Source: an uncultured Candidatus Actinomarina sp. (GTDB lineage: Bacteria > Actinomycetota > Acidimicrobiia > Actinomarinales > Actinomarinaceae). Taken from it: a stretch of DNA of 64,000 bases. A program made the position numbers and the translations under genes. The first letter of the stretch is position 1. Every line of letters begins with the position of its first letter. The notes under the pieces were generated by a model. The model was not told the DNA's origin, searched no databases, and saw only the letters and a list, made by a program, of their open reading frames with translations. The stretch is taken from NCBI GenBank assembly GCA_902555985.1, contig CACDUI010000001.1, positions 67,291 through 131,290 on the forward strand, in the 5' to 3' direction. This document shows, piece by piece, positions 13,350-44,579 of the stretch.

Positions 13350-13586
13350 ATGGAAATCAAACTTGAATTTTGTGTAGTTTGAAACTACACACCTCGTGCA
13401 GTTGGCACGATAGAAGATGTCTTAGAAATTTACGGTAATAAAGTTACCAATATTCAATTGATTCCAAGTGGTGGTGGAGTATTTGAATTTCATTTAAATG
13501 AAAAATTAATATTTTCAAAAAAAGAACTAGAAAGACACTCAGAAGATGGGGAAATTCTTAAATTAATTGAAGAAGAACTTGGTTGA
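13350..13586 (+). CDS. SelW/Rdx-family selenoprotein (78 aa) with in-frame UGA = Sec at 13380..13382 (CxxU)
   Basis: The frame reads MEIKLEFCVV-U-NYTPRAVGTIEDVLEIYGNKVTNIQLIPSGGGVFEFHLNEKLIFSKKELERHSEDGEILKLIEEELG. Both the CVVU redox motif and the LIPSGGGVFEF block are Rdx/SelW hallmarks. A hairpin tCGTGC-AGTTG-GCACGa lies at 13392..13408, 9 nt after the UGA (a candidate bacterial SECIS). Without recoding the ORF would be only 10 codons. Confidence 0.7.
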
Positions 13587-14317
13587 ACTTACCGTTTGAT
13601 TTAACTCTATTTGAAGTAATTTTTATTGCACTATTGCTTTTTATTGGCTCTGCAGTCCAAGGCGTTTTGGGTTTTGGGTTTGCTGTTATCGCTTCACCAA
13701 TAATTGTTCAAATTGAACCTAATCTTGTACCACAGCTGCTTGCGTTACTTGGTTTACCACTTGCTTTGAGAGTTTTTTACAGAGAAAAAGATGAAGTTGA
13801 TTTATCTAAAGTAAGGCCACTTATTTTAGGTCGGTTAATAGGAGGACCACTTGGACTCTTGTTCTTATTAAACTTATCTGAGAAATATTTATCAATTTCC
13901 GTAGGGCTTATTGTTTTCATAGCAGGTGCAGGTTCTTTTTTTGGTTGGGAAATAAATAGAAATAATTTAAATTCGTTTTTTGCAGGTACTTTTTCTGGTA
14001 TTTTTGGAATGATTGCAGCAATTGGTGGCCCTCCAGTAGCTTTGCTTTATAGAAATACTAAATCTCAGGAATTTAGGCCATCCCTTAATAGTGTATTTAG
14101 TATAGGTATTTTGATTACATTGTCTCTTTTAGTATTTAGTGGGAATCTTTTTCTTGACCACCTACTTTTATTTTTGTTATTTCTTCCAGTTGTTTTGATT
14201 GGAATTCGAGTTTCTAGCTCTCTTTTCTCTAAAGCCTCAGATCGTTTTATTGCACAGTCAGTAACTTATTTTTCAATTATTTCTGGTCTTTATGTTATTT
14301 TGAGAAACATAAATTAG
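13583..14317 (+). CDS. TSUP (TauE/SafE, DUF81) family membrane transporter
   Basis: 244 aa with two repeated 4-TM halves containing Gly-rich GxGGG-type segments. An apparent TTG start overlaps the selenoprotein stop (TTGA), so the true start is uncertain. Confidence 0.65.
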   Translation: MNLPFDLTLFEVIFIALLLFIGSAVQGVLGFGFAVIASPIIVQIEPNLVPQLLALLGLPLALRVFYREKDEVDLSKVRPLILGRLIGGPLGLLFLLNLSEKYLSISVGLIVFIAGAGSFFGWEINRNNLNSFFAGTFSGIFGMIAAIGGPPVALLYRNTKSQEFRPSLNSVFSIGILITLSLLVFSGNLFLDHLLLFLLFLPVVLIGIRVSSSLFSKASDRFIAQSVTYFSIISGLYVILRNIN

Positions 14318-14354
14318 TTTATTTCAATTAAGAGGATTATTAATATATAAGCAT

Positions 14355-15845
14355 ATGTTTATGAACGCCACTATTGCCGGCTTGCTCTATTTCTTAAGTT
14401 TTCCTCCATATGATTTATGGTATTTAATATTTCCAGCACTGTATCTTTTTTATTATTCATTGTTATCAAAAGAAAAATCATTTTTATCAGGATTTATCTT
14501 TGGGTGTATTGCTTACGGTGTAATTTTATTAGGTATTCAATCAATAGGACTTGAAGCCTGGATTCCACTAACAATCTTAATGGGGTTGATGTACGGAATA
14601 TTCGGAAGACTATTTTCCTATCTAAATACAAAATCTGAAAACAATTTCTATGTTTTACTGTCAGCAATAGCAATTTTTGATTTATTTAGAGCGTATTTTC
14701 CATTTGGTGGTTTTCCCTGGGGGTTTCCTTCAACAGTTTTATTAACTAGTCCTATAAACAGTCCATTATTTTTTGAAATTCCTTTGTATTTCAAAAATTT
14801 TGGACCAACGGGAGCATCTCTTTTACTACAATCCTTTACATTAATAATTGCACTTGGTGTCTTTCTGAAAAGTAAACAAAAAAATTATTTGAAAAATTAC
14901 ATTATATTTTCATTAATAATTTTTATAATAATAATTTCTAATTTTGTGATAAGTGATTCTCAATATGCTCAAATAGAAGCATCAGAACTAAATATCGCAA
15001 TCGTTCAAGGAAACAGCCCGTGTCCTGGTGCAAAAAACAGATGCAACAATGAAAGACAAAAAATTTATGATAGTCATTTAACCCAAACGCAATCTCTTGA
15101 TGGGAATTTTGATTTAGTAGTTTGGCCGGAGAGCTCAACAGGATTTAATAATGATCCTGGAATACATAGCAAAGTTCAAAATGAAATTTCTGCCGAAGCC
15201 TTAAGACTAGATTCGTATTTTTTAATAGGTGGAGATAGGCCCATACAAAAAAAATATTTTGAAAATTATGGAATTTTTATAAACAAAGATGGAGAGATTA
15301 CAGGTCAATATTTAAAACAACACCCCGTCCCTTTTGGAGAGTATATTCCATTTAGAAAATATTTAGAATGGATTCCTCCATTAGCACTAGTTCCCCGGGA
15401 CATGATTAGGGGAGATAGTCAAAAAATATTTATGGTTAATGATGTAAAAATTTCATCTGTTATTTCATTTGAAGGTTCATTCCAAAGGTATATCCGAAAC
15501 AGTGTGCAGGATGGTGCAGAATTGGTTGTAATCCTTACTAACCAAGCAAGTTATGGAGAAAGCGGTATGTCAGACCAATTTATATTAATGTCTAGAGCAA
15601 ATGCAATCTCAAATGGGAGGCCGATTGTGCACGCAGCAATAACTGGTAAGTCAGCATTTATAGACCACAAGGGAACAGTAATTTCTAAAACTGAATTATT
15701 TGAAACAGGAATACTGACTGAAAAAATTGAGGTTATACAGACAGAAACTCCCTACAGCAAATATGGAAACTATTTAAATTATATTTTTATAGTATTTGGA
15801 GGCATCAGTCTTTTGTGGCCAAAGAATATGTTGAAGAAAACCTAG
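14355..15845 (+). CDS. lnt: Apolipoprotein N-acyltransferase
   Basis: N-terminal polytopic region followed by a C-terminal carbon-nitrogen hydrolase domain (VVWPESS Glu, Lys, and a Cys in ISFEGSF). Architecture is typical of Lnt. Confidence 0.8.
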   Translation: MFMNATIAGLLYFLSFPPYDLWYLIFPALYLFYYSLLSKEKSFLSGFIFGCIAYGVILLGIQSIGLEAWIPLTILMGLMYGIFGRLFSYLNTKSENNFYVLLSAIAIFDLFRAYFPFGGFPWGFPSTVLLTSPINSPLFFEIPLYFKNFGPTGASLLLQSFTLIIALGVFLKSKQKNYLKNYIIFSLIIFIIIISNFVISDSQYAQIEASELNIAIVQGNSPCPGAKNRCNNERQKIYDSHLTQTQSLDGNFDLVVWPESSTGFNNDPGIHSKVQNEISAEALRLDSYFLIGGDRPIQKKYFENYGIFINKDGEITGQYLKQHPVPFGEYIPFRKYLEWIPPLALVPRDMIRGDSQKIFMVNDVKISSVISFEGSFQRYIRNSVQDGAELVVILTNQASYGESGMSDQFILMSRANAISNGRPIVHAAITGKSAFIDHKGTVISKTELFETGILTEKIEVIQTETPYSKYGNYLNYIFIVFGGISLLWPKNMLKKT

Positions 15846-15888
15846 AAAAGCTTATCTATAAAATCTATGAAACTTTTTAGGAACTAAT

Positions 15889-17100
15889 TTATAATTCTGA
15901 ATCAATTATTGGCAAGCCTCTTGCAGCAGCAGCCTCCACTGTGCCGTCTTGAAATGCTCTTAGTCCAAACTTTGGTAATACTGCAAATATATGATCAAAT
16001 ATATCAGATTGTATACCTTCGTATTCAACCCAATCAATTGTATTTGTAAAGGTATATAACTCTAGAGGAACTCCTGTGGGAGTTGGCGAAAGTTGTCTTA
16101 CCAGCAAAGTCATCGTTTCTGTATTGAGACCATCATGATTTTGTAAATACTTAACAAGATATGCTCTAAATGTCCCAAGGTTAGTAAGTTTTCTTTTTTC
16201 TTTTTTTTCATCAACCAAAGAGTTAAATTTTTCAATATCTTTTATTTTTTCAGAGAGATATTTATTTACAGTTGGGATTTTCATTAGCTTATCAATATCT
16301 TTTTGCTCCATAAACCTAACACTTGATATATCTATGGAGATTGATCTTTTAATTCTTCTTCCTCCATACTCTGACATTCCTCGCCAGTTTTTTACAGATG
16401 TGGTGACAATCTTTGATGTTGGAATTGTTGTGATAGTTTTATCCCAGTTTTGTACCTTTACTGTATGTAAGGCAATGTCTACAACATCACCATCAGCACC
16501 ATATTCTGGTACCTCAATCCAGTCTCCATTATTAATAATGTTATTCTGACCAATTTGTACTGATGCTATAAATGACAAAATTGTGTCCTGGAAAACTAAC
16601 AACAGAACTGCTGTAAGGGCACCTAAACCACTAATGTAATAACTAACTGGTTGACCAGTCATAATTGCAAAAATAATTATGAATATAAAAGAGTTAACAA
16701 CAATTTTAACAATCTGAACGTAGCCCTTAATTGGCTTATTTTTTAGTGATTTGATATTTTCTGAAACCTTATTTAACACATTCAACATTTCAAGAAGAGT
16801 AAGGCCAACGAATAATGTTAAAAATGCACTAGAAACTCTCTTAGAAATTTCAGTATTAAATATTTCTAAATTGAACTGGGGTGTAGCAATTAAAAAATTA
16901 AACAAAACAAAAACGAATACATAAGAAACTCTATTTAAAAATTTTTTATCTAGGAATAGGTCGTCTATATATGTACTTGTTTTACTTGCACCACGTTTAA
17001 TTATTGGAAAAACTAATGATCGAAGAATTAGATAGGAAGCAATAAGAATTCCAATTAAATATGCGAGTGTAGGCAAGTCTGATGCTGTTAAATTATTCAT
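15889..17100 (-). CDS. MscS-family mechanosensitive channel
   Basis: N-terminal TM helices followed by the conserved MscS beta-domain (GDWIEV...GDVVDIALHTVKVQNWDKTITTIPTS) and a C-terminal alpha/beta domain. Confidence 0.8.
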   Translation of the reverse strand: MNNLTASDLPTLAYLIGILIASYLILRSLVFPIIKRGASKTSTYIDDLFLDKKFLNRVSYVFVFVLFNFLIATPQFNLEIFNTEISKRVSSAFLTLFVGLTLLEMLNVLNKVSENIKSLKNKPIKGYVQIVKIVVNSFIFIIIFAIMTGQPVSYYISGLGALTAVLLLVFQDTILSFIASVQIGQNNIINNGDWIEVPEYGADGDVVDIALHTVKVQNWDKTITTIPTSKIVTTSVKNWRGMSEYGGRRIKRSISIDISSVRFMEQKDIDKLMKIPTVNKYLSEKIKDIEKFNSLVDEKKEKRKLTNLGTFRAYLVKYLQNHDGLNTETMTLLVRQLSPTPTGVPLELYTFTNTIDWVEYEGIQSDIFDHIFAVLPKFGLRAFQDGTVEAAAARGLPIIDSEL

Positions 17101-17114
17101 ACATTAATCCTACT

Positions 17115-17855
17115 CTAAAAACCTTTTTGTTGACTTTTCCATGGGGCTGGTATGTTATTAATAAACTCGTCAACACTTGGACCGCCCAGAGACTGAAGTT
17201 TATTTTGTCCAATAATATAAGTAACGACCAATAAAATTAATGTTGTCTGATTTGATGATAAAAGTTTAATTGTTACAAGTATCTCAGGGGAATTGAAAAA
17301 TATTATTTGAAGACCACCCTTGATAAATAAGTATAAAGTCCAAATTATTGCAACTCTTGTATATGCAGGACGAACAAGTTCGTGTAGGTACCACCCTTGG
17401 GGCCATTTTCTAATTGCTTTAGAACTATAAATAGTAAATGGTTTTTTAATTATTATTGAAACAAAACCAACTACAGCAATTAAAATATCTCTAACGATTC
17501 CAGGAATAAAAAAGCCAGACGCACTTCCTTGAACTCTTGCTAGAAGAAGTGCTACCAATGTTCCTACTAATCCGTAGAATACAAATTTTAAATCTTGCTT
17601 TCTTAGAAGACGATAAAGAAACAAAAGTATTAACAAAATACCCGTATATAAAATTGCCTGATTAAGAGTTGTAAAATTATTGGTTACTACAAAAAAGATT
17701 GGGGCAACTACAGAATCAAAAACTCCTTCTTGATTAAAATTTAATTCTTTTAACTCTTCTTTGATTTCTAAATACTTTTTATAAAATTTTCTCAATTTAT
17801 TTGAACTTATTATTAAAAGAATCTTCATCATTTGAGAGCGAAGTTTCTTTTTCAA
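17115..17855 (-). CDS. Polytopic membrane protein (hypothetical). The start is probably downstream of the ORF-track start, since that overlaps the purB 3' end
   Basis: 246 aa with 5-6 hydrophobic helices. No motif recognised. Confidence 0.35.
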   Translation of the reverse strand: MKKKLRSQMMKILLIISSNKLRKFYKKYLEIKEELKELNFNQEGVFDSVVAPIFFVVTNNFTTLNQAILYTGILLILLFLYRLLRKQDLKFVFYGLVGTLVALLLARVQGSASGFFIPGIVRDILIAVVGFVSIIIKKPFTIYSSKAIRKWPQGWYLHELVRPAYTRVAIIWTLYLFIKGGLQIIFFNSPEILVTIKLLSSNQTTLILLVVTYIIGQNKLQSLGGPSVDEFINNIPAPWKSQQKGF

Positions 17856-19071
17856 TAAAATCTAAAATTAAATTTGAATCAATCTTAAATTTTTCAGAGA
17901 GTTTTGTCACAATTTCTTTAGTTGAAAAATTCTCAAATGTTAGATCCTGGACCGCCCTATAAGCCTCATCTCTATCAATATCATTTTTTACTAAGGCTGA
18001 AAGAATTTTCTGACTGCTTAATTTATCAGTTGCATCAGTTAGGTTTTTTTCTATAGCTTTGTAGTTTATATGAAGACCATCAAAAATTGATATTAAATCT
18101 TTAGTGATAAAACAAATTAAGTTAAAAGTATCAGGAAGGATAATTCTTTCAACAGAGGAATTAGAGATATCTCTTTCATGCCAGAGAACTATGTTCTCCA
18201 TACTGCTTAATGCATAACCCCTAACAACCCTTGCTAATCCTGTAATTCTTTCACTTGCTATTGGATTTTTTTTATGTGGCATAGCTGATGAACCTTTTTG
18301 TCCATCTTTAAAAGGTTCACTTAGTTCCGAAACCTCAGATCGTTGGTAACCCCTAATATTTGTCGCAACCCTTTCAAAACTACTAGCAAGAATTGCAAGA
18401 CTTGTAATAATTTCTGCATACCTATCCCTTGCTACGACTTGGCTTGCGAAGATTTCAGCTTCTAGTCCAAGTTTCTTAAGAGTTGTTCTCTCAATATTTT
18501 CATCTACTACGGTATGGTTTCCAACCGGTCCACTTAGTTTTCCTACTGAAATAGTTTTTACACAATTTTCTAAGCGCTCCCTGTTTCTTTTTATTTCTTG
18601 GTGCCAGTTACCAAAAATATTACCTAAAAATGTTGTTTCGGCAAAAACGCCATGAGTCCTGCCAACTATAGGTGTATGCATCTCCTGTTTAGCTTTGGCC
18701 TCAATCTGTTTTAAAAGTTCATCTAGTAATTCGATCGTTATAGATAAAGACTGTTTAATTAATAAGCTATTTGCTGTGTCAACTACATCTGAGCTTGTAA
18801 GACCATAATGAATCCAATTTGAATTGTCACCAACTTTAGATTGAAGTATATCGACAAATGAAGCTAAATCGTGATTTGTGATTTTCTCTCTTTCGTATAC
18901 TTCGTCCTTTGAAATCTCAGTTTTTTCAATGACCTCAGCTATTCCACCTGGAGAAATATTATTTTCTTCTAGGGTTTCAAGGTATTTTTGTTCTACAAGT
19001 TTCCAGGTATCAAATTTATTTTGATCATTCCAAATTTTTTCAATTTCGAGGTATTGGTATCTTTCAATCAT
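17797..19071 (-). CDS. purB: Adenylosuccinate lyase
   Basis: Fumarate-lyase signature GSSAMPHKKNP. Length 424 aa. The 8-nt overlap with purA suggests translational coupling. Confidence 0.9.
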   Translation of the reverse strand: MIERYQYLEIEKIWNDQNKFDTWKLVEQKYLETLEENNISPGGIAEVIEKTEISKDEVYEREKITNHDLASFVDILQSKVGDNSNWIHYGLTSSDVVDTANSLLIKQSLSITIELLDELLKQIEAKAKQEMHTPIVGRTHGVFAETTFLGNIFGNWHQEIKRNRERLENCVKTISVGKLSGPVGNHTVVDENIERTTLKKLGLEAEIFASQVVARDRYAEIITSLAILASSFERVATNIRGYQRSEVSELSEPFKDGQKGSSAMPHKKNPIASERITGLARVVRGYALSSMENIVLWHERDISNSSVERIILPDTFNLICFITKDLISIFDGLHINYKAIEKNLTDATDKLSSQKILSALVKNDIDRDEAYRAVQDLTFENFSTKEIVTKLSEKFKIDSNLILDFIEKETSLSNDEDSFNNKFK

Positions 19072-20344
19072 CAGTAATAACTATATTTTGGTTCCTTTCA
19101 GGCCCTACAGATATAAAAGTTATTGGAACTTCAATAAAATCCTCAATAGCATTTATATATTTTTTAGCATTTTCAGGTAAATCATCAAATTTTTTAACAG
19201 AAGTAATGTCTTCAGTCCAGCCATCTAGAATCTCATATACTGGTTCGGCAGTATTTAAAATATTTTGATCATATGGATAGTCAGTAGTAACTCCATTTTC
19301 ACTTTCATACCCTACACAAAGTTTCAATTCTTCAAGTCCAGAGAGAACATCAAGTTTTGTTATAAAAAGTTCAGTCAATGAATTAATTCTTACTGAGTAC
19401 TTTAAAGAAATTAGATCTAACCAACCACATCTTCTTCTTCTGCCAGTAACTACTCCAAACTCTGCACCTTTTTCTATTAGATAATCTCCAATTTCATTTT
19501 CTTGTTCTGTTAGAAATGGTCCACTTCCAACACGAGAAATATAGGCTTTAGTTACACCAACAATTCTATCTAAATTTTTTGGACCTACTCCCGAACCAGT
19601 AGCAGCGTTTGCTGAGGAAGTATTTGAGCTAGTTACAAAAGGGTATGTTCCATGATCAATATCTAATAATGTCCCCTGAGCCCCTTCAAATAAAATTGTT
19701 TTATTATTTTTTATTGCATTCGCAATTAATAGTGATGTGTCTGCAATATGATTAGAAACCATTTCAATATAATCATTAAACTCCTTGATAATCTCGTCAG
19801 CTACTATAGGCGCTTGGTTGTATATTTTTGTAAGAGTTAAGTTTGTTTCTTCAATATTATTTTTGACTTTTTGATCAAAAATATTTTTATCCAGTAAATC
19901 TTGAACTCTAATGCCTTTTCTCTGAATTTTATCTGCATAACATGGCCCAATTCCTTTTTTTGTTGTTCCAATTTTGTTTTCACCTAAGCCCTCTTCTATA
20001 AGTTCATCAAGTAATTTATGGTATGGCATAACCAAATGAGCATTTGGAGAAATAACTAATTTTTCTGTATTAACGTTTTTTTCATTTAGCATTTCTAGTT
20101 CTTGCTTTAAGAACCCAAGATCGACTACACAACCTGAGCCAATTACTGGTGTGCAGCTAGGGTAAAGAACTCCCGACGGTGTTAGAGACAATGCTACTTT
20201 ATCTTCTCCAACAACAATAGTGTGACCAGCATTATTTCCACCTTGAAATCTGACTACATAATCTGCAGTTGAAGCAAAAAAATCTGTGACTTTACCTTTA
20301 CCTTCATCACCCCACTGGGCTCCAAGTACTACGGTAGTAGACAA
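19064..20344 (-). CDS. purA: Adenylosuccinate synthetase
   Basis: GAQWGDEGKGK P-loop and GGNNAGHT motif. 426 aa. Confidence 0.93.
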   Translation of the reverse strand: MSTTVVLGAQWGDEGKGKVTDFFASTADYVVRFQGGNNAGHTIVVGEDKVALSLTPSGVLYPSCTPVIGSGCVVDLGFLKQELEMLNEKNVNTEKLVISPNAHLVMPYHKLLDELIEEGLGENKIGTTKKGIGPCYADKIQRKGIRVQDLLDKNIFDQKVKNNIEETNLTLTKIYNQAPIVADEIIKEFNDYIEMVSNHIADTSLLIANAIKNNKTILFEGAQGTLLDIDHGTYPFVTSSNTSSANAATGSGVGPKNLDRIVGVTKAYISRVGSGPFLTEQENEIGDYLIEKGAEFGVVTGRRRRCGWLDLISLKYSVRINSLTELFITKLDVLSGLEELKLCVGYESENGVTTDYPYDQNILNTAEPVYEILDGWTEDITSVKKFDDLPENAKKYINAIEDFIEVPITFISVGPERNQNIVITDD

Positions 20345-20543
20345 TTTCTCTCCTTAGATACAACATAAAATAATAATGGATTTTTCTTATAATCAGTAGA
20401 GGTTTCTTAGCGATTTTAGATTTAATTGCAAATTATTAGTTTTTTTCAATAATTATTAATTGCTACATAAATATAACTATATTAAATTAAAGACAATACA
20501 GCTTCTTTAAAGCTGTGTACTTTTAATTAAAAGGAGATAAACA

Positions 20544-21623
20544 TTGAATAAAAAAGCAATTGTTTTTCTTTTAGTATTTGCAATGGTAATTGTCGCTTGT
20601 GGAGACACAACCGAAGAAGCTGCTGTTGAAGCTACTGAAGAAGAACATGACCACGAAGGCGAGTCAACGCTTGAACAAGTTCAAGAAAGAGGATTCCTTA
20701 AGTGCGGTGTTAGCACCGGTGCTACTGGATTCACTGAAGTAGGGGACGACGGTTCTTACTCTGGATTTGACGTTGACTACTGTTATGCAGTTGCTGCTGC
20801 TATCTTTGGCGATTACAGTAAAGTTGAATTTAAGCAACTTACATCAGCTGAAAGATTTACAGCACTTAGCGCTGGCGAAATTGATGTCTTAATAAGAAAC
20901 ACAACTTGGACTCAAAGTCGTGATACTGAATTAGGTAACGATTTTGGACCAACAACTTATTATGATGGTCAACAATTAATGGGTAGAGTAGCTGATGGCT
21001 TGTCAAACAGCTCAACTGTCGCAGATATTGACGGTTTAAGAGTATGTACAAATGCTGGAACAACAACTGAGAAAAATATTACTGAGCGTGTTGGTCTTGC
21101 AGGTGGAACAATTCAGCTTATTACAGTAGAAGCATTCTCTGAAGCAATTGATAAATTTATTGCTGGTGAGTGTGATATTGTTACAACTGACGGTTCTGGA
21201 CTTGTTGGTAGAAGAGCAGTAAATGATGCTCTTAATGATTGGGTAATTTTCCCAACATCACCAATTTCCAAAGAACCACTTGGTCCTACTTATAGATCAA
21301 ATGATAGCCAGTGGGCAGACATCATTAACTGGACTGTATATGCAACAATTATCGCTGACGAATATGGCGTTACTGCTGCAAATGTAGATTCAGCTGATCT
21401 TGAAGCTAACCCAGAACTAGGAAGACTCTTTGGTGCAAACGATGGAGAACTTCAAACTAAGATGGGTCTTAGTGCAGATGCTTACTATCAGGTTATTAAG
21501 CAAGTCGGAAACTATGATGAAATCTTTTCAAGAAACCTAAATCCATTAGGTCTCTATAGAGAAGGTGGAGATAACGACCGATGGGCAGACGGCGGATTAA
21601 TTTACGCACCTCCTGCTAGATAA
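20544..21623 (+). CDS. Amino-acid ABC transporter substrate-binding lipoprotein (general L-amino-acid AapJ-like, PBP type 2)
   Basis: Signal peptide with lipobox IVAC. Family-3 solute-binding fold. TTG start 9 nt after AAAGGAG. An intrinsic terminator follows. Confidence 0.8.
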   Translation: MNKKAIVFLLVFAMVIVACGDTTEEAAVEATEEEHDHEGESTLEQVQERGFLKCGVSTGATGFTEVGDDGSYSGFDVDYCYAVAAAIFGDYSKVEFKQLTSAERFTALSAGEIDVLIRNTTWTQSRDTELGNDFGPTTYYDGQQLMGRVADGLSNSSTVADIDGLRVCTNAGTTTEKNITERVGLAGGTIQLITVEAFSEAIDKFIAGECDIVTTDGSGLVGRRAVNDALNDWVIFPTSPISKEPLGPTYRSNDSQWADIINWTVYATIIADEYGVTAANVDSADLEANPELGRLFGANDGELQTKMGLSADAYYQVIKQVGNYDEIFSRNLNPLGLYREGGDNDRWADGGLIYAPPAR

Positions 21624-21644
21624 TCGTTAAAAAAATTATTGCGA

Positions 21645-21674
21645 AAAGAGCCTTCGGGCTCTTTTTGCTTTTGT
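21645..21674 (+). terminator. Rho-independent terminator after the substrate-binding-protein gene
   Basis: AAAGAGCC-TTCG-GGCTCTTT stem-loop followed by TTGCTTTTG. Confidence 0.65.
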
Positions 21675-21720
21675 AGATATTTGAGTTTCATTTAACAGTT
21701 CAATCAAGTAATATTTTTCT

Positions 21721-32056: not shown

Positions 32057-32066
32057 TGAATTTATT

Positions 32067-35600: not shown

Positions 35601-35630
35601 TTCGGATTATCCTTTCTTAAAAATTTCTAA

Positions 35631-35834
35631 TTATGAGATAGGTTCTTGTTCTCTTGGTAAATGGCCTCTTACTCTTGGGTAGGAGACAGGTGCATGAAGA
35701 AAACAAAATTTCTTTTTGTTGTATACACTTATTACTGTTTCACAAGCATCAAATGCGCATACACGACCTGTAGTGTATTTTTTTGACCTTCTAACACCAG
35801 GCTTAACTTGAGATGCAGTTAATGTTCCGCTCAT
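35631..35834 (-). CDS. Small conserved Cys/His protein, paralog 2. First gene of the dnaK operon, ending 30 bp upstream of the dnaK start
   Basis: 67 aa, MSGTLTASQVKPGVRRSKKYTTGRVCAFDACETVISVYNKKKFCFLHAPVSYPRVRGHLPREQEPIS. Shares the C-x4-C-x12-C-x2-H block with the ORF at 11154..11348. Confidence 0.55.
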   Translation of the reverse strand: MSGTLTASQVKPGVRRSKKYTTGRVCAFDACETVISVYNKKKFCFLHAPVSYPRVRGHLPREQEPIS

Positions 35835-35869
35835 TTTTTACCTTTCTAATCTATACTTTATTATATATA

Positions 35870-35895
35870 AAATCTATGTAAATTTACTTAGATTT
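35870..35895. promoter_or_regulatory. 26-bp near-perfect palindrome AAATCTATGTAAATTTACTTAGATTT (24/26 symmetric), about 35 bp upstream of the dnaK-operon first gene
   Basis: The two halves AAATCTA.GTAAA / TTTAC.TAGATTT are reverse complements except at one symmetric position pair. Lies in the 165-bp AT-rich divergent region between the dnaK operon and proC. Confidence 0.45.
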
Positions 35896-35999
35896 GTATT
35901 AAATATAACATAATATCGATATTAAACAAAAAAAAATAAAAAAAATTTTAAAAAGTAGCTTTTTTTAACCTCTCATCATTTAACTGATATTATTGAAGA

Positions 36000-36794
36000 A
36001 TGGAAAAATTAGATATTCACATAGTTGGTTTAGGTAATTTAGGATCTGCATTCTTAAAAGGTTTAAATATTGTTGATGGTATCAACTTATTTTTATACGA
36101 GGATTTAGATGTTGTTAGACAATCTATAAATGATGAATTTTCTATTACTCCAGATGACTCAATAATTTCTATTCAAAATGGGGTACTTATTCTTTGTATT
36201 AAGCCTCAAAATATAAATAATTTTTTTACAAATAACAAAGATAAAATAGACCCGGATGTTTTAATTTGCTCCCCTGTTGCTGGGTTAGAAATTAAAACAA
36301 TAGAAAGTTTTATCGATAATAAAATTCTTCGAATAATGCCTAATTTACTCATCGGTGATAATAAAGGATTTATTCCATATGTATCAAATTATGATGGAGA
36401 TTATTTCACTTTTAAGAAGAATGTTTTGGCGAAACTTGGTGCTATAAAAGAATTTGACGAGGCAATGTTTCCAATAATTACAGCTTTGTCAGGAAGTGGT
36501 CCTGCTTGGTATTACGAGCTATCAAGTCAACTTGTTAACTCTGGTCAAGAATTGGGACTTAGCTTAGATGATTCCGAAATGATAATTAAAGAACTTGTAA
36601 AAGCCCTTCCAACACTTGTGGCAGAAGACAGCTCATTTAAAGATCTAGTAGAGCAAGTAAAGTCACCTAATGGCACAACTGAGGCTGGACTCAATTCGCT
36701 TAATAATGATTCATTTGATAGAATAATTCTCGATGCTATTCAAAAAGCAACGCACAGATCTACTGAAATATCAAGAGAACTAAGTAATGAATAA
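36000..36794 (+). CDS. proC: Pyrroline-5-carboxylate reductase
   Basis: N-terminal Rossmann (IHIVGLGNLGSAF). C-terminal ProC signature region VKSPNGTTEAGL. Confidence 0.75.
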   Translation: MEKLDIHIVGLGNLGSAFLKGLNIVDGINLFLYEDLDVVRQSINDEFSITPDDSIISIQNGVLILCIKPQNINNFFTNNKDKIDPDVLICSPVAGLEIKTIESFIDNKILRIMPNLLIGDNKGFIPYVSNYDGDYFTFKKNVLAKLGAIKEFDEAMFPIITALSGSGPAWYYELSSQLVNSGQELGLSLDDSEMIIKELVKALPTLVAEDSSFKDLVEQVKSPNGTTEAGLNSLNNDSFDRIILDAIQKATHRSTEISRELSNE

Positions 36795-38946
36795 ATTTTT
36801 AAATAAATACAAAGCAAATGATTACGTGCTTCTGTTTTCTGCAGGAGCTGCAGTAGGCACTCTTTTTTTGTGGGCAGCAAGCTATATATTTCCTGAAGGG
36901 GAAATAGTAGGTGGAAGAAGAGTATTTGAAAATATTCCTAAAGTACTTCAATACATATTTTATGTTTTAAGTGCTACAACTGTCTATATATCAGGTTATT
37001 TGTTTTCACTCAGAGTAAAAAACTGGACAAGAGGCAAAGAAGAGAAGCGAAATGTAAAGTTGTCACAGAGAATTTTTAGTCTTTTTGATGGCTTGACTAT
37101 GAGAACTGTGCTCAGGTTTAAAGCTGCAGGGTTAATGCATTCACTTATTTATATAGGATTCCTTGGCTTGTTCGCTGGAACTATTACTTTAGAGATTCAT
37201 CATCTAATGCCACCATCATTAAAATTCCTTCAAGGCACAACTTACATCGTTTATTCATTCACTTTAGAGCTGGCTACGATAGCTTATTTAATTGGTCTTT
37301 TTTGGGCTTTAGCAAGACGTTTAATCGGTACAGAATACAGAATTAAAACAAAAACAACTATAGATGACTATTTAACTCTTTCCTTATTAATTTTTATTGG
37401 AATTTCGGGTATAACTACTGAAGCTGGAAGAATAGCATTAGAAAATTTTCCAGATTATGAACGATGGTCATTTATTGGATATGCAGTAGGTGAAGTTCTA
37501 AATCTTTCTAACCCAGGCCTTTTTCACAGAGTTTCCTGGGTTCTACATGTTGTGTCATTTTTTGTTTTCCTAATTGCAATACCGTTATCAAAGTTGAGGC
37601 ATATATTTACATCACCAATAAATATGTTTATGTCTCCAAAAGAAAGACCTAAAGGTGCAATGAAATTTATTGGAAATTTACTTGAGGCAGAAGATATTGA
37701 TTCTGTTGGCGCTGGAATAGTTGACCACTTTACTTGGAAGCAATTAATGGATTTAGATGCTTGTACTGTTTGCGGTCGCTGTACTTCAGTATGTCCTGCA
37801 AATCAAACTGGTAAATCCTTAGATCCCAGAGAGATTATTCTAAAAGTTGGCCAAGTAATGTCTGAATCAGGACAACCCGCTGTACCAGCAACAGTTTCAA
37901 CTCCAGGTCCTTTACGTGTTAATTCTGACAATGTATTTGAAAGAATAACTTCTGAAGAGCTTTGGGCTTGTACCTCTTGCAAGGCATGTGACGAGATATG
38001 TCCTGTAAATATTGAAATTCTGGACAAGATATTGGATATGAGAAGACATTTAGCTTTAATGGAATCTGACTTTCCTGCTGAGCTTGGTAAAGCATATGTT
38101 GCGATGGAGAACTCATCAAACCCTTGGGGAGCTTCTCAAAATGATAGATTGAAATGGACTGAAGATCTGGACTTTGAAGTCCCTGTAATAGACGAAAAAA
38201 ATCATGAAGAATATGATTATTTATATTGGATAGGGTGTGCGGGAGCTTTTGATGATAGAAACGTACCTGTAACAAAGGCAGTAGCTACTCTCTTAAAGCG
38301 TGCGGGAGTTTCTTTTGCTGTCCTTGGCCCTAAAGAAGTTTGCACAGGAGATTCTGCAAGAAGAACCGGTAATGAATTTGTATTTCAACAATTAGCAATC
38401 CAAAATATTGAAAATATGAACAATCTAAAAGTAGATAAAATTATCACTCAATGTCCGCACTGTTTTAACACAATAAAAAATGAGTATCCACAATTAGGTG
38501 GTAATTATGAAGTCATTCATCACAGTCAGCTATTAACAGAATTAGTCCAGTCTGGAAGGATTGAAGTAGGAACAAGCGACAAGCCTTATAAGATAACTTA
38601 TCACGATTCGTGTTACCTAGGTAGACATAATGATATTTACACTGCTCCACGAGAGATAGTAGGTTCTATTGGTGGAATTGAAATTCGTGAAATGAAGAGA
38701 CAGGGAACTCAAAGCTTCTGCTGCGGCGCCGGAGGCGGAAGAATGTGGATGGAAGAATCTGTTGGAAAAAAAGTCAACATTGAGAGATCACAGGAAGCTA
38801 TTGAAACAGGTGCAGACGAGGTGGCGGTTGCGTGTCCTTTTTGTTATATAATGATGGATGATGGCGTTAAAGAATTGGGGTATGGTGATAATGTCAGAGT
38901 AAGAGATGTATCTTTAATTCTCTTAGATAATCTCAAGAAAGATTAA
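36787..38946 (+). CDS. Membrane-anchored Fe-S oxidoreductase: NarI-like b-type membrane domain fused to HdrD/GlpC-like 2x[4Fe-4S] + 2xCCG domains (HmeCD/DsrMK-fusion type)
   Basis: N-terminal approximately 280 aa with 5-6 TM helices and conserved His residues. Two ferredoxin motifs (CTVCGRCTSVCP, CTSCKACDEICP). Two C-terminal Cys-rich CCG-type domains (CPHCFNT...; FCCGAGGG...CPFC). 8-nt overlap with proC. Confidence 0.8.
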   Translation: MNKFLNKYKANDYVLLFSAGAAVGTLFLWAASYIFPEGEIVGGRRVFENIPKVLQYIFYVLSATTVYISGYLFSLRVKNWTRGKEEKRNVKLSQRIFSLFDGLTMRTVLRFKAAGLMHSLIYIGFLGLFAGTITLEIHHLMPPSLKFLQGTTYIVYSFTLELATIAYLIGLFWALARRLIGTEYRIKTKTTIDDYLTLSLLIFIGISGITTEAGRIALENFPDYERWSFIGYAVGEVLNLSNPGLFHRVSWVLHVVSFFVFLIAIPLSKLRHIFTSPINMFMSPKERPKGAMKFIGNLLEAEDIDSVGAGIVDHFTWKQLMDLDACTVCGRCTSVCPANQTGKSLDPREIILKVGQVMSESGQPAVPATVSTPGPLRVNSDNVFERITSEELWACTSCKACDEICPVNIEILDKILDMRRHLALMESDFPAELGKAYVAMENSSNPWGASQNDRLKWTEDLDFEVPVIDEKNHEEYDYLYWIGCAGAFDDRNVPVTKAVATLLKRAGVSFAVLGPKEVCTGDSARRTGNEFVFQQLAIQNIENMNNLKVDKIITQCPHCFNTIKNEYPQLGGNYEVIHHSQLLTELVQSGRIEVGTSDKPYKITYHDSCYLGRHNDIYTAPREIVGSIGGIEIREMKRQGTQSFCCGAGGGRMWMEESVGKKVNIERSQEAIETGADEVAVACPFCYIMMDDGVKELGYGDNVRVRDVSLILLDNLKKD

Positions 38947-39260
38947 AAATTTTGACCCATAAAAAATTTTTGAACACTTCCATCTGAATTTCTAATACTG
39001 TAAATTACATATAGAGCGATAGTAAAACTTCCCATCGTCATAACAAAAAAAGTCCAAATAACTGCCGGTAGAACTCTTTCTTTATAAAATATCCATATAC
39101 TAAATAATATAAATCCGGAGTAAAGATCAACTAAAGAAACAATACCCCAAGGCATGCCTGCAATAGGCGAGTCAAATATTGACACTTCACCCTGAGCCCA
39201 AATTATTACTCCTGCCATAGAAACAGTTATAAAGTATGAAATAATTTTTGTTATAGTCAT
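38943..39260 (-). CDS. Small 3-TM membrane protein (hypothetical)
   Basis: 105 aa, convergent with the Fe-S oxidoreductase gene. Confidence 0.3.
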   Translation of the reverse strand: MTITKIISYFITVSMAGVIIWAQGEVSIFDSPIAGMPWGIVSLVDLYSGFILFSIWIFYKERVLPAVIWTFFVMTMGSFTIALYVIYSIRNSDGSVQKFFMGQNF

Positions 39261-39292
39261 AAGATAGATTTTAAATAAGGAAAAAATAAATA

Positions 39293-39910
39293 ATGAGTGA
39301 AAGACAAATATTTTCTAAAATCTTACGTCTTGATAAATATATTTACAATGAGCTAATAGTCCTTGACGGAGCTTTACAAAGAGGAATAGCAATTTTCTTA
39401 GCTGTTACAACCTTAACTACCTTGAGTGCTTTTAGACTTTTTAATGGCTTAATTGAATTCCTTGAGAGCAACCTTGTTTTATTTAGCGGTGAAATGTCTG
39501 ACGAAGAGTTTGCAATGTTTAAATCCTTAATTGATGAACTCTCAATAATTTTTATTCAACAAGACTCGACTACCACACTACTTTTCTCATCAATAGTCTC
39601 AACAACAGTTACTTCAATAGTCGGTCTTATTGTTTGCTTTTTAATTCTTAAATTTTTGTTTAGAAAAGAACCCAGGCCAATTGATTTAATTATTATTTCA
39701 TTTTTTTCAAGCGCTCCTGGCTTGCTTGTATTTCCGGTTCTTTTTATTTCAGATTCTTTTTTTCAAGCGATACTAGTACTAGTAACTTCTATCTATGCTC
39801 TTGTAGCTTTTGGATCTGGACTTAAGCAGGTTTATTTCTTAAGAAACATTGAAGTAATTTTGGTAATAGTAGCTCTTACTTTTGGCGGTTCAATACTAGG
39901 ATCATTTTGA
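39293..39910 (+). CDS. Polytopic membrane protein (Yip1-like topology, hypothetical)
   Basis: 205 aa with about five hydrophobic helices after a soluble N-terminus. 4-nt overlap with the next gene. Confidence 0.35.
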   Translation: MSERQIFSKILRLDKYIYNELIVLDGALQRGIAIFLAVTTLTTLSAFRLFNGLIEFLESNLVLFSGEMSDEEFAMFKSLIDELSIIFIQQDSTTTLLFSSIVSTTVTSIVGLIVCFLILKFLFRKEPRPIDLIIISFFSSAPGLLVFPVLFISDSFFQAILVLVTSIYALVAFGSGLKQVYFLRNIEVILVIVALTFGGSILGSF

Positions 39911-40509
39911 TTATGAATGCAGCAGTTATACTAGCAGCTGGTGATTCAAGTAGAATGGGCTTCCCAAAACAGCTAGCAGAAGTAAAAGAGAAGCCTTTAC
40001 TTCAACTAATTATCGATAAAGTTAATAATAAATTCGAATATTCTTCTGTTGTTCTAGGATCAGAAAATGAAGTAATTTCAGAAAAAATTGATTTCAAAAA
40101 TTCAAACATTTTGATTAATGAAAGCTGGACAGAGGGCATCACATCTTCCATCAGGACATCATTGTTTTTTTATCAAGGCCAAAAAGAAATTGAAAATATA
40201 ATATTTTTTCTTGCTGATCAACCAGAGGTAGAAAGTGAAGTTATAGATAGTCTGATAAATAATGATCACGATGGAACGAAAATTTTAATTCCACAATATC
40301 GGTACAAATTAGGGTTTCCCATTTTAGTTCCAAGATTATTCTGGCCTAAGCTAGAACTTATTACTCAAGATGATAATTTGGATGAAGAAAAATCTGTTTT
40401 TCAAGATTTTGATTTAATTGATTTCTTTATTTCGTCAGAAATAGAAACTAGAAATTTAAATTTTAATTTTTTAGAACCGATCGATTATGACGAAGAAAAA
40501 GATTTTTAA
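39907..40509 (+). CDS. MobA-like NTP-transferase-domain protein (nucleotidyltransferase, substrate unknown)
   Basis: N-terminal AVILAAGDSSRMGFPKQL is the GxG(S/T)RMG...K nucleotide-binding motif of MobA/MocA/IspD-type transferases. 200 aa. Confidence 0.5.
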   Translation: MIMNAAVILAAGDSSRMGFPKQLAEVKEKPLLQLIIDKVNNKFEYSSVVLGSENEVISEKIDFKNSNILINESWTEGITSSIRTSLFFYQGQKEIENIIFFLADQPEVESEVIDSLINNDHDGTKILIPQYRYKLGFPILVPRLFWPKLELITQDDNLDEEKSVFQDFDLIDFFISSEIETRNLNFNFLEPIDYDEEKDF

Positions 40510-40572
40510 GAGTGGGAAAAACTCTTAAAAAAAATCGTTTCTTTATCTAAATTATTTTGTAAAATTTAAAAC

Positions 40573-40977
40573 ATGAATTCAATTGACTCTATAAATGGTA
40601 TGACACACACCGAAGCAACAAAATTAAGAAGAGCTAGAGTCAGAACAACAACAACTTTCTTACAGATTGCATCTTCTAGGTCTGGCAGAGCATTGCTTAC
40701 TAAAGAGACCGGCATAAGTTCTCCAAAACTTTTACACTGGGCAAGAAGAGCAGAGTTAATGAAAATTAAAAATCTTGGAAGAGATTATGCAGACTTACTT
40801 GAAGCAGCTGGTGTTGAAAGTGTATCTGAGTTAAAACGTAGAAACCCTGAATCTCTTCATGAAATGATGGCAAAAATTAATTTTAAAAAAAACATTGTAG
40901 ACAGGATGCCCTCATTAAAAAGAGTATCAAAGTGGATTGACGATTCTAAAGATATAGAAATTAAGGTTTCTTCATAA
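40573..40977 (+). CDS. Small basic HhH-like protein (DUF4332-like), hypothetical
   Basis: 134 aa. The central region (IKNLGRDYADLLEAAGVESVSELKRRNPESL) resembles tandem helix-hairpin-helix repeats. Tentative. Confidence 0.35.
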   Translation: MNSIDSINGMTHTEATKLRRARVRTTTTFLQIASSRSGRALLTKETGISSPKLLHWARRAELMKIKNLGRDYADLLEAAGVESVSELKRRNPESLHEMMAKINFKKNIVDRMPSLKRVSKWIDDSKDIEIKVSS

Positions 40978-41003
40978 CCAAACATCCCATCTATCATTAA
41001 ATT

Positions 41004-42710
41004 GTGAATAAAAAAACCATAAGAATTACTGGTGCACAAATGTCATTTCCAGTTGGTGCGATACAGAAGAACAAGCAAACTATCTTAGACTGTTTTGAAA
41101 TAGCTGAAGAAAAAGAAACTGACATCTTAATATTCCCAGAACTGGCTTTAACAGGATATCCTCCAGAAGATTTACTCTTGAGAGAAAGTTTTATTGGTAA
41201 AAACTTTGCAGTTCTAGAAGAGCTTGCAGAATTTTCTAGTGCTACCAGTGGTGTTATTGGTTTTGTGGATAGAAACTTAGATGAAGACCACACAGATAAG
41301 CAAAAAAGAGGAATAGCTAATGCTGCAGCAATAATTCAAAATGGTGATGTAAAAGGAATTTATCATAAGTGTTACCTTCCGAATTATTCTGTTTTTGATG
41401 AAGCTAGATATTTTGCTAAAGGGAATAATCCTGGCAATCTTTTTTGGTATAACGATGTAGCAATAGGAATTAGTATTTGTGAAGATATTTGGATTGATGA
41501 AGGGCCGTCACTACAACAAGTTGAAAATGGAGCGTCTTTAATAATAAACATAAATGCTTCACCTTATGACCAAAACAAAAGTAACTCTAGAAAAGAACTT
41601 GTAATTAGTCAGGCAAAAAAACTTAAAGTGCCAATAATTTATTTAAATATGGTTGGCGGTCAGGACGAACTCGTTTTTGACGGTGGGTCATTTGTTGTAG
41701 ACGGGGAAGGAAAAGTAATTTATCAAGCCAAGCAATTTGAGGAAGAATTATTTCATATCGATTTAGATCTTGAAGTAAAAAAACAACCTATTGGATCGGC
41801 TTTAGAGATTAGGGAAAAGACCACAGAACTTGAAAAATTATACTCTTCTGCACTACTCTCAAAAAATGAATCTTTGTATGCAGCACTAAAACTAGGGCTT
41901 TTCGACTATGTGAAGAAAAATAATTTTGAAAAAGTACTCATAGGGCTATCCGGAGGAATTGATTCTGCATTGACAGCTACAGTCGCTGTAGATGCTCTGG
42001 GTTCTGAAAATGTTATAGGTGTTGCCATGCCATCTAAATATAATTCAAAAGAATCTCTTATTGATGCAAAGTCTTTAGCTGAAAATCTTAAAATAGAATT
42101 TAAAACTATAGAAATTGAAACAATAGTAGAAAATTTTAGAACTACGTTAGCTGGCATAATCAATGAAGATCTTGGACAAACAACTGATGAAAACATACAG
42201 TCAAGGGTTAGAGGCAATATTTTAATGGCCCTTTCTAATCAAACTGGAGCCATGGTTGTGTCTACAGGAAATAAATCAGAAATGGCAGTAGGCTATTCAA
42301 CGCTTTACGGTGACTTAGCAGGAGGATTTGCATTATTAAAAGATTTATATAAAACAGAAGTTTATAATTTATCAAATTTTAGAAATACAATTTCCAAGGT
42401 AATACCACAAAATACAATTGATAAAGAGCCAAGTGCAGAATTAAGGCCAAATCAGTTTGATAAAGATTCACTACCAGAATATGACCTACTTGATAAAATA
42501 CTTCGTTTGTATATTGAGGAAGACAGCTCTTCAGAAAAAATTATCTCTTCTGGAATTAATGAAAATATTGTTTACGATGTCTTGTCTAAAGTCGACAGAA
42601 ATGAATATAAAAGAAAACAGGTTGCTCCAGGGGTAAAATTAACTGAAAAAGCATTTGGCAAAGATAGAAGAATGCCAATTACAAATACATATATTAGAGA
42701 ACAGGATTAA
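41004..42710 (+). CDS. nadE: Glutamine-dependent NAD+ synthetase
   Basis: N-terminal CN-hydrolase (glutaminase) domain with a catalytic Cys in ISICEDIW. C-terminal NAD synthase domain with the SGGIDS PP-loop. Confidence 0.9.
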   Translation: MNKKTIRITGAQMSFPVGAIQKNKQTILDCFEIAEEKETDILIFPELALTGYPPEDLLLRESFIGKNFAVLEELAEFSSATSGVIGFVDRNLDEDHTDKQKRGIANAAAIIQNGDVKGIYHKCYLPNYSVFDEARYFAKGNNPGNLFWYNDVAIGISICEDIWIDEGPSLQQVENGASLIININASPYDQNKSNSRKELVISQAKKLKVPIIYLNMVGGQDELVFDGGSFVVDGEGKVIYQAKQFEEELFHIDLDLEVKKQPIGSALEIREKTTELEKLYSSALLSKNESLYAALKLGLFDYVKKNNFEKVLIGLSGGIDSALTATVAVDALGSENVIGVAMPSKYNSKESLIDAKSLAENLKIEFKTIEIETIVENFRTTLAGIINEDLGQTTDENIQSRVRGNILMALSNQTGAMVVSTGNKSEMAVGYSTLYGDLAGGFALLKDLYKTEVYNLSNFRNTISKVIPQNTIDKEPSAELRPNQFDKDSLPEYDLLDKILRLYIEEDSSSEKIISSGINENIVYDVLSKVDRNEYKRKQVAPGVKLTEKAFGKDRRMPITNTYIREQD

Positions 42711-42715
42711 GCAAC

Positions 42716-43540
42716 GTGTATTTTATAAATGAGGAAGAGGTTAAGAAAGAGGATTTTCACTTACCAGTTGAAAATTTAGCTGTATGGAGAGGTGACGGAG
42801 TTTTTGAAGCTCTAAGAATACATGATCGTTACCCTTTTGGTATAGAAAAGCATATTGATAGGCTAAAGCAGTCTTGTAGAAAGCAGTTATTTGAAAATGT
42901 TGATTTCAGTCTTATTGAGAATAATATTTCAAAAATTGCATCACAGTATGAAAATGGCTACGTCAGAATTCTTATTTTGAGAAATGATTCTGATGAAGAT
43001 TTTACGATTTATTCTTTTTATCAATTACCAATTAAAATATCAGAAAATTATAAATTAGAATCTCAACCTGCTCCCTGGCATCCTGGGGGAGATTTTGATG
43101 TTAATAGTGATAACATTGTAGGGTCTAAATCAACTTCATATGCATATAATATTAAGCAAACAAGAGATGCTATTAGGAATGGGTTTAGTGACGCACTACT
43201 CCTTAGCAGCAAAGGGGTAGTTCTTGAGGGCCCCACCTTCTCAGTGGGATGGATTAAAGATGAGGTAGTATACGTTCCAGATCTAGATTTGGGAATACTC
43301 GACTCAATCACTAGGAAATACTTGCTTGAATTTGGAAGTGCAAATAAAATCAATACAGCAGTATCCAGAGTCACTATAGATGAGTTATATACGGTAGATA
43401 CAGTTTTTGCTATGTCAACTGCCAAACACGGAATATTTGTATCTAAAATTGATGACAAAGAGTACACACAGTCGCCTCTATTGAACACTATTCAAGATTT
43501 ATTCAAGAAAGAAGTTTTAAAGGAAAAACAAGAAAGTTAA
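42716..43540 (+). CDS. Class IV (fold-type IV) PLP aminotransferase-family protein (BCAT/ADC-lyase-like)
   Basis: 274 aa. Domain order and the GSKSTSYAYN Lys region fit the fold-type IV family. Confidence 0.6.
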   Translation: MYFINEEEVKKEDFHLPVENLAVWRGDGVFEALRIHDRYPFGIEKHIDRLKQSCRKQLFENVDFSLIENNISKIASQYENGYVRILILRNDSDEDFTIYSFYQLPIKISENYKLESQPAPWHPGGDFDVNSDNIVGSKSTSYAYNIKQTRDAIRNGFSDALLLSSKGVVLEGPTFSVGWIKDEVVYVPDLDLGILDSITRKYLLEFGSANKINTAVSRVTIDELYTVDTVFAMSTAKHGIFVSKIDDKEYTQSPLLNTIQDLFKKEVLKEKQES

Positions 43541-43550
43541 GGAGGGTAAA

Positions 43551-44579
43551 GTGAGACTTACAGAGTATTCTCATGGCTCAGGTTGAGCATGTAAACTCTC
43601 CCAAGGAGAGCTTGCTCAGGTTCTGAAGCAATTACAACAAAATAATCACAGCAATCCTGAAATTTTAGTAGGACTAGATAACCCTGATGACGGTGCAGTT
43701 ATTGATTTGGGTAATAATTTAAAAATAGTTCAAACTGTAGATTTTTTTACACCTATCCTAGACGACCCTTATGACTGGGGGAGAGTTGCTGCTGCTAATG
43801 CATTGTCTGATATATATGCCATGGGTGGAGTGCCTATTTCCTCACTTCAGTTAGTAAGTTGGCCAAGAGAAGATATTGGATTTGATATCTTATCAAGTGT
43901 AATTAATGGCGGTTCAGATGTAATGAAATCAGCAAACTGCAGCATTGTAGGCGGGCATAGTATTGATGATAAAGAACCAAAATATGGCTTTGCTGTGACA
44001 GGGATAATCAATGAAAAAATATATAAAAAAACTGATATTAAAAAAGGGGATAGACTCTTTTTGACCAAACCACTCGGCTCAGGAATAATTGCAACAGCAA
44101 TCAAAAAAGGTAAAGCCGAAAAAGAAGCTATAAGTCAAGTTACAGAGATTATGACAACATTAAATGACAGAGGTCTAGCAGTAGCCAAAAATCTAAATGC
44201 TAATGCTGTTACAGATGTGACCGGTTTTGGACTCTTAGGGCATTTAAGCGAAATGTTAATCAATGATAATTTGTCAGCAAATTTAATTTTTGACGACATT
44301 CCAATAATTGAGTATGCAAAAAAATATTTTGAGGAGGGTATCTACCCATCTGGAAGTCAAAGAAACTTTAATAGTTTGAAAGATTTCATAACATTTGAAA
44401 ATGAAGACGAAGCATTAATATTATCTGATGCTCAAACTAGCGGAGGACTTTTAATTGCAGCTCCTAAAGAAACAAATGTAGATTTTAGCGAAATTGAAAA
44501 ATCACATGGGGTAACAATAAAAGAAATTGGGAATATAACTGATAGATATAATAAAAAAATAAATATTATTAGTAATTGA
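43551..44579 (+). CDS. selD: Selenophosphate synthetase SelD, itself a selenoprotein: in-frame UGA (43584..43586) at the catalytic SGxACK position
   Basis: GTG start at 43551, 5 nt after AAGGAGGG. Translation VRLTEYSHGSG-U-ACKLSQGELAQVL... continues in frame into the ORF-track protein (43707 onward), giving full-length SelD with its glycine-rich loop and AIR-synthase-like domains. Hairpin CUCUCC-CAA-GGAGAG lies at 43596..43610, 9 nt after the UGA (a candidate SECIS). Confidence 0.85.

Follow-up and report, generated by a model that had tools for sequence, protein, structure and literature searches.

The sequence studied here is a stretch of 64,000 nt from Candidatus Actinomarina sp. (assembly GCA_902555985.1, contig CACDUI010000001.1, positions 67,291-131,290 of the forward strand), hereafter the window. 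It has a G+C content of 30-36% and holds 58 recognisable genes in tight packing; among these, the dnaK-grpE-dnaJ-hspR operon and the genes for DUF3159, Lnt, and PAC2 proteins are indicative of Actinobacteria. A mechanical search of the whole window for pairs of open reading frames (ORFs) joined by a single TGA recovered three joined ORFs in otherwise non-coding gaps (Table 1). Two of these are the subject of this report: gene A, which codes for a small SelW-like protein, and gene B, which codes for SelD, the selenophosphate synthetase. The in-frame TGA of each is predicted to specify selenocysteine (Sec). The third, a zinc-ribbon gene, proved to be of a different nature.

Two genes with in-frame UGA codons

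The 78-residue product of gene A matches the Rdx family of Pfam (PF10262; E=2.3e-15, 57 bits against a cutoff of 22.6) over positions 2-73 of 74, and also scores above the cutoff of the CXXU_selWTH model (TIGR02174; 44.6 bits, cutoff 34.2). With the SelTWH_Campy equivalog model NF041051 it reaches 79.2 bits, below the cutoff of 88, and is related to that group but not a member of it. In its motif C8-V-V-U11, the U11 lies opposite the second Cys of the CxxC (CTQC) motif in the structures 3dex, 2fa8, and 2ojl. Like the bacterial SelW-like/Rdx proteins of known structure (PDB 3dex SAV_2001, 2fa8 Atu0228, and 2p0g), it falls in the same length class and carries its N-terminal CxxC/CxxU on the first strand-loop-helix; in contrast to them, it is a predicted Sec form (CVVU rather than CTQC) and stands in an operon-like arrangement with a permease gene of the TSUP family. 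The TGA at the CxxU position is retained in all 14 metagenomic relatives of gene A, which share 48-92% amino acid identity. We infer that the product is a thiol/selenol oxidoreductase.

Gene B is identified as selD by its scores with TIGR00476 (379.3 bits, cutoff 125) and NF002098 (361.5 bits, cutoff 299), and its product carries both the AIRS (PF00586) and AIRS_C (PF02769) domains. In the alignment with Escherichia coli SelD (PDB 3u0o; E=5e-79), the U is opposite Cys17: the loop SHGSG-U-ACK aligns with SHGAG-C-GCK of the E. coli enzyme, and the Lys that follows the Cys/Sec is kept. In E. coli SelD the catalytic Cys17 lies in this N-terminal Gly-rich loop and is followed by the conserved Lys20. 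The TGA is kept in 8 of 8 Actinomarinales SelD loci (58-95% amino acid identity), of which the closest, from Candidatus Actinomarina sp. AG-447-I21, has a SelD 95% identical to that of the window in DNA that is 91.5% identical over 19 kb. Translation starts at GTG in 5 of 12 distinct SelD sequences.

The state of this site in protein databases is misleading. Not one of the 120 nearest clusters listed in a large protein collection (at least 65% identity) has Cys at the Sec site; 111 show Trp, and the other nine are truncated, starting downstream of it (290 or 303 amino acids). None of these 120 entries bears a functional name, and there is no close named relative among the listed matches. For three of them we went back to the source DNA, which has TGA at the Sec codon and which under genetic code 11 does not give the database protein. 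The Trp therefore arises artificially, from gene calls that apply genetic code 4 to low-GC contigs. Such calls, which are frequent in public metagenome data for Actinomarina contigs (e.g., SelD entries P0001 and P0073), put W at the Sec codon and add tails of 2-5 residues past the real TGA stops. All members of the clade appear to have the Sec form of SelD, rather than about half of them having a Cys form.

Because the UGAs of gene A and selD are conserved in 14/14 and 8/8 loci and align with the Cys that in each family has the redox or catalytic function, their occurrence is not a matter of chance. On these comparisons, both are predicted to be genuine Sec codons, and we consider it very likely that Candidatus Actinomarina decodes UGA as Sec by the standard bacterial route, with two such codons in the window, in the genes for SelD and the SelW-like protein. 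This bears out an earlier note on this DNA in its claim of two Sec-recoded genes and supports its view that a streamlined low-GC genome uses Sec. The note went wrong in stating that the window lacks Sec machinery, as gene B is itself SelD, although selA, selB, and the tRNA are indeed not in the window. Its description of both proteins as small or regulatory redox proteins fits gene A and fails for gene B.

Table 1. Features of the two UGA-containing genes, the adjoining permease gene, and the zinc-ribbon gene (positions in the window)
Feature	Position	Strand	Basis and remarks
Gene A, predicted 78-aa SelW/SelT/SelH (Rdx) selenoprotein, MEIKLEFCVVUNYTPRAV...	13350..13586	+	PF10262, TIGR02174, CxxU motif
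Predicted Sec codon (UGA) of gene A, codon 11	13380..13382	+	TGA in 14/14 related loci (L012-L025)
UGA-loop hairpin of gene A, 9 bp, UGUGUAGUU/AACUACACA, UGA as 3-nt loop	13371..13391	+	3' arm within the 11-nt spacer before the SECIS-like hairpin
SECIS-like hairpin of gene A, stem UCGUGC/GCACGA (6 bp), loop AGUUG	13394..13410	+	Starts 11 nt after UGA
TauE/SafE (TSUP) permease, TTG start	13583..14317	+	PF01925, 76.8 bits
Gene B, SelD (selenide,water dikinase / selenophosphate synthetase), 342 aa, GTG start, motif S-G-U-A-C-K	43551..44579	+	TIGR00476, NF002098
Predicted Sec codon (UGA) of SelD, codon 12	43584..43586	+	TGA in 8/8 Actinomarinales loci
SelD hairpin H1, CUCUCC-CAA-GGAGAG	43596..43610	+	9 nt after UGA; in minimum-free-energy folds; 84.7% paired, 12 distinct sequences
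SelD hairpin H2, UUGCUCAG-GUU-CUGA(A)GCAA, apical GUU 43620-43622	43612..43631	+	92% paired
Zn_ribbon_13 (DUF2082) gene, TGA at 52921-52923 (codon 13)	52885..53115	+	PF09855, 83.5 bits; not part of the Sec trait

RNA hairpins near the two UGAs

Both UGAs are accompanied by hairpins within the coding sequence that are candidates for the Sec insertion sequence (SECIS). These were assessed in alignments of 12 distinct, related sequences per gene, with 500 shuffles as a control for covariation and slid structure positions as a control for pairing; these do not fully correct for relatedness. The SECIS-like hairpin of gene A is paired in 95.8% of cells. Its bottom pair is UA in seven sequences, CG in two, UG in two, and GC in one, with three compensatory cells; here the third base of a Pro codon changes along with the first base of the Ile/Val/Leu codon that faces it. 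Upstream of it lies a hairpin that presents the UGA itself as its loop; folding of 13360-13450 gives a z-score of -3.0. This UGA-loop hairpin is paired in 88.9% of cells, mostly via sequence identity; it is kept in close relatives, weaker in the loci L016, L021, and L022, and missing from L024, the homologue that is most distant. It is built with the rarer codons AAC and TAC (about 26-27% usage), and its nine Watson-Crick pairs have an estimated chance probability of ~0.4%, given the peptide and the codon usage of the window. Taken jointly, the two hairpins of gene A show a covariation of 0.191 versus 0.129 in shuffled alignments (0/500), and slid controls pair in 17-52% of cells. 

In selD, two hairpins, H1 and H2, follow the UGA in tandem. 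A structure considered before these, with the UGA in a lower stem under H1, was well paired with covariation that was not significant, and was rejected in favour of the tandem arrangement. H1 and H2 jointly are 88.8% paired versus 29-51% in slid controls, with a covariation of 0.160 versus 0.088 in shuffled alignments (0/500). In H2, pair 69-73 is GC in six sequences and AU in four, the third position of the Gln codon (CAG/CAA) covarying with the first position of the Leu codon (CUG/UUG), both changes being synonymous, while pair 66-76 is UA in nine and AU in two. By covariation, H2 is the better-supported SECIS candidate of the two. An RGUUN loop motif is common to the gene A hairpin (A-GUU-G/A) and H2 (G-GUU-C, A-GUU-U). 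Thus, the hairpins of both genes are under structural selection.

In the fdhF mRNA of E. coli, the SECIS forms a minihelix 11 nt downstream of the UGA, and a G and a U in its apical loop contact SelB. The RGUUN motif shared by the gene A hairpin and H2 is similar to the G-U of this loop. The gene A hairpin resembles it in starting exactly 11 nt after the UGA and in having G-U at loop positions 2-3; it differs in its short 6-bp stem without a bulged U and in the extra UGA-loop hairpin upstream. SelD H2 differs in its distance of 25 nt from the UGA; it reads CAGGUUCUG and appears close to the CAGGUCUG of fdhF.

Decoding machinery and rival explanations

The roles of SelD, SelA, and SelB in the bacterial Sec pathway are established knowledge. 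By this route, SelD, itself a predicted selenoenzyme here, would convert selenide and ATP to selenophosphate; SelA would convert Ser-tRNA(Sec) to Sec-tRNA(Sec); and SelB would bring the latter to UGA codons that have an in-frame SECIS hairpin downstream. In SelD, Sec would take the place of Cys17, the catalytic residue of the E. coli enzyme; in the SelW-like thioredoxin-fold protein, it would be part of the CxxU redox center. A Sec-containing SelD makes the pathway self-dependent, in that its own product is needed for its own synthesis.

Of this machinery, the window holds selD; selC, selA, and selB are not among its genes. No tRNA gene and no Rfam match at the gathering thresholds was found in the window (Rfam is without a usable bacterial SECIS model), and none of the 58 window genes has a SelA or SelB domain. 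With the protein of the last gene in the window as query, an exact-match look-up led to a contig, L037, which shares positions 60642-64000 (3359 bp) at 99.76% identity and runs on for another 7.9 kb. At 1488-1580 of this contig ARAGORN finds a tRNA-Sec gene (selC) with the anticodon TCA, which matches Rfam RF01852 with 75.4 bits (gathering score 47). This places selC ~6.3 kb past the right end of the window and ~27 kb from selD, for the same population and not strictly for the same molecule. On L037, selC sits between a 200-residue gene and hflX, and the public annotation calls a 149-residue ORF across it. Another NCBI assembly, GCA_902605465.1, is 99.7% identical to the window over 12 kb. The eight SelD loci were negative when scanned for tRNA genes, so that selC does not lie beside selD.

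The remainder of the machinery is described in a recent preprint (Nielsen & Lui, April 2026, "Actinomarina, resolved"; bioRxiv 10.64898/2026.04.03.716425), which reports that each of 84 complete Actinomarina genomes has selA, selC, and selD together with a divergent selB. There, selA was assigned to K01042 in all 84, at a distance of ~16% of the chromosome (~175 kb) from selD, while selB was recognised in all genomes as a sub-threshold match to K03833 (268 vs 306). According to its Table 8, selC and selD are separated by about 0.023-0.025 of the genome, in agreement with the ~27 kb seen here. The preprint also predicts ~5 selenoproteins per genome, 15% of these outside any called gene. The earlier note had named a complete genome devoid of Sec machinery as the outcome that would speak for error or pseudogenes; selC next to the window and the preprint contradict that scenario.

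Under such a scenario, both TGAs would be sequencing errors or inactivating mutations, and genes A and B would be pseudogenes. The window does contain one such case, the zinc-ribbon gene, in which TGA stands where 11 of 11 relatives have TGG, and an in-frame TGA alone proves nothing. In genes A and B, however, the same TGA recurs in independent assemblies whose proteins are 48-95% identical (14/14 and 8/8, with Cys in 0/120), the frames are intact on both sides of it, and it occupies the exact position of the catalytic Cys. This explanation is refuted because the TGA is conserved, and we accord it a negligible probability. A reassignment of UGA to Trp, as in code 4, or to another amino acid could seem to be favored by the low G+C content of the lineage and by the 111 of 120 nearest listed SelD entries that are translated with W. 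Yet these entries also end in unnatural read-through tails (..NWW, ..SKW), from which it follows that the gene caller ran over real TGA stops. Moreover, TGA serves as a clean stop in 8 of the 58 window genes, and Trp is encoded by TGG 254 times as against two in-frame TGAs, both at Cys/Sec-equivalent positions; at a true Trp position, that of the zinc ribbon, the relatives use TGG; and a tRNA-Sec gene adjoins the window. The genome uses the standard genetic code, and a reassignment is extremely improbable.

SelD is common to all three selenium traits. It could accordingly serve mainly the formation of 2-selenouridine in tRNA or of the cofactor of Se-dependent molybdenum hydroxylases, with selenoproteins being marginal. 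A gene for a MocA/YgfJ-like nucleotidyltransferase at 39907-40509, 3 kb upstream of selD, points in that direction, but its match of 96 bits is far under the equivalog cutoff of 186, and nothing resembling YqeB/YqeC or XdhC was recognised among the window genes. Furthermore, the preprint (bioRxiv 10.64898/2026.04.03.716425) finds no YbbB (K06917) in its 84 genomes, and making SelD itself requires Sec decoding. We therefore regard another selenium trait as the main role of SelD as very unlikely.

Several points weigh against decoding of UGA as Sec by the standard route. The SECIS of selD is ambiguous: H1 has an E. coli-like spacing and weak covariation, whereas H2 has good covariation and a stem that starts 25 nt after the UGA. 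The 61-nt windows downstream of the UGAs fold unexceptionally (z = 0.06 and -1.7), and each hairpin alignment comprises only 12 distinct related sequences, with a shuffle control that ignores relatedness. For selA and selB we depend on a preprint that is not peer reviewed and whose selB lies below the KofamScan threshold, and Sec insertion is predicted here from sequence. We nevertheless retain Sec decoding as the explanation at the strength given above. A bolder extension of it would make the UGA-loop hairpin and the RGUUN loops a lineage-specific recoding signal for the divergent Actinomarina SelB, in which the hairpin might, for instance, pause ribosomes 10 codons after initiation or hide the UGA until SelB has been loaded. 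It would also make the overlap of gene A with the permease gene the sign of a selenoprotein-coupled step in sulfur or selenium anion transport. This reading we consider unlikely.

Neighboring genes, annotation, and significance

The TTG start of the TSUP permease gene overlaps the TGA stop of gene A by 4 nt (TTGA). This adjacency and overlap is seen in 13/13 Actinomarina-type loci that reach downstream and not in the distant homologue L024. The two genes are probably co-transcribed and translationally coupled via the TTGA overlap. The conservation of the overlap thus suggests co-expression, while any functional link is a matter of speculation, and a literature search for a link between TauE and selenoproteins was unproductive. 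The permease was rejected as a selenoprotein in its own right, its ORF being complete (Pfam positions 2-236 of 237), as was an upstream extension of it through the in-frame TGA at 13568, since a TAA lies two codons before that TGA.

The third joined ORF, the zinc-ribbon gene, was rejected as a U-x-C-x-x-C selenoprotein. Its codon 13 is TGG (Trp) in each of the 11 relatives that can be aligned (74-98% nucleotide identity), and no hairpin stands out after the TGA (z = +1.4). L003, the closest species representative, has lost the gene altogether by a deletion of window 52865-53141. The TGA is either a private nonsense mutation, with the gene apparently on its way to being lost, or an error in the assembly. 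One of the three in-frame TGAs in the window is thus a plain nonsense change; an in-frame TGA by itself is insufficient for a Sec call, and the case warns against equating a split ORF with Sec.

The expectation of the earlier note that nearby candidates hide further UGAs did not hold. The HdrD-like CCG protein at 36787-38946 is an intact 719-residue ORF with a NarI-like membrane part, 2x[4Fe-4S], and two CCG domains, all with full coverage. The CopZ-like HMA protein at 10842-11051 (-), which has a CGHC motif and lies upstream of a CopA-type P-type ATPase, is likewise intact and without TGA. A read-through extension upstream of the DUF418 gene (31962/31839/30691) was rejected, its TGA standing directly before the ATG and the extension overlapping an ORF in another frame. 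Besides the search for joined ORFs, a scan of the whole window for TGA followed by a hairpin with an RGUU/GGU loop returned, apart from gene A, only out-of-frame or antisense matches; SelD H2, which has a bulge, escaped it for that reason. Neither scan gave a further candidate. Other parts of the window contain a 64-residue Cys-rich ORF without TGA at 11154-11348 (-), in a 537-bp gap by the CopA region, and two proteins of 205 and 105 residues without a significant family match that precede the MocA/YgfJ-like gene, 3-4 kb upstream of selD (39293-40509 + and 38943-39260 -). A 399-bp non-coding region at 35601-35999, upstream of the dnaK-grpE-dnaJ-hspR operon, is presumably the place of the HspR operator (HAIR) repeats.

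The Sec trait of Actinomarina is already known, and both Sec-SelD and SelW-like proteins are long-known bacterial families, so the additions made here are incremental. They comprise the assignment of the 78-residue family as Rdx/SelW-like, the covarying SECIS hairpins of both genes, the lack of a Cys-type SelD near the clade, and the code-4 mistranslation in databases. Our results agree with the preprint in a selenoprotein form of SelD (there 342-346 residues with an MRLT prefix), in the 78-residue family, which is its most abundant predicted selenoprotein, and in genes missed by standard gene callers. They differ in three respects: the preprint leaves the 78-residue family "uncharacterized" (no UniRef90 or KofamScan match), whereas we place it among the Rdx/SelW-like proteins; it found no SECIS with Rfam models, whereas we find covarying hairpins in both genes; and it infers a Cys-form SelD in about half of its genomes, whereas we see none in eight species representatives or in the 120 nearest listed clusters. 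The GTG starts of SelD may have hidden these genes from its predictor. Likewise, its third family, K07090 (a TSUP transporter according to its supplement), may be the 78-residue ORF assigned by the 4-nt coordinate overlap with the TSUP gene. The Sec-containing SelD proteins of Haemophilus influenzae (Guimaraes et al. 1996, cited by Nielsen & Lui) and Aquifex aeolicus (PDB 2yye/2zod) belong to the same enzyme family and have the residue in the same Gly-rich N-terminal loop; the SelD of the window differs from them in two tandem hairpins after the UGA and is 58-95% identical only within Actinomarinales.

The view of the earlier note that the selenoproteome of this lineage is under-annotated is supported: SelD is truncated or given Trp in the databases, and one NCBI assembly has it as a 290-residue fragment. 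Overall, what that note observed is partly confirmed, and its interpretation is partly supported. Many more proteins of this low-GC lineage are probably miscalled under code 4 as well.

Actinomarina are among the smallest and most abundant free-living marine bacteria. That a dedicated Sec pathway is kept in a genome of ~1.1 Mb indicates, as the preprint has already pointed out, that selenium chemistry is worth its cost to these organisms.

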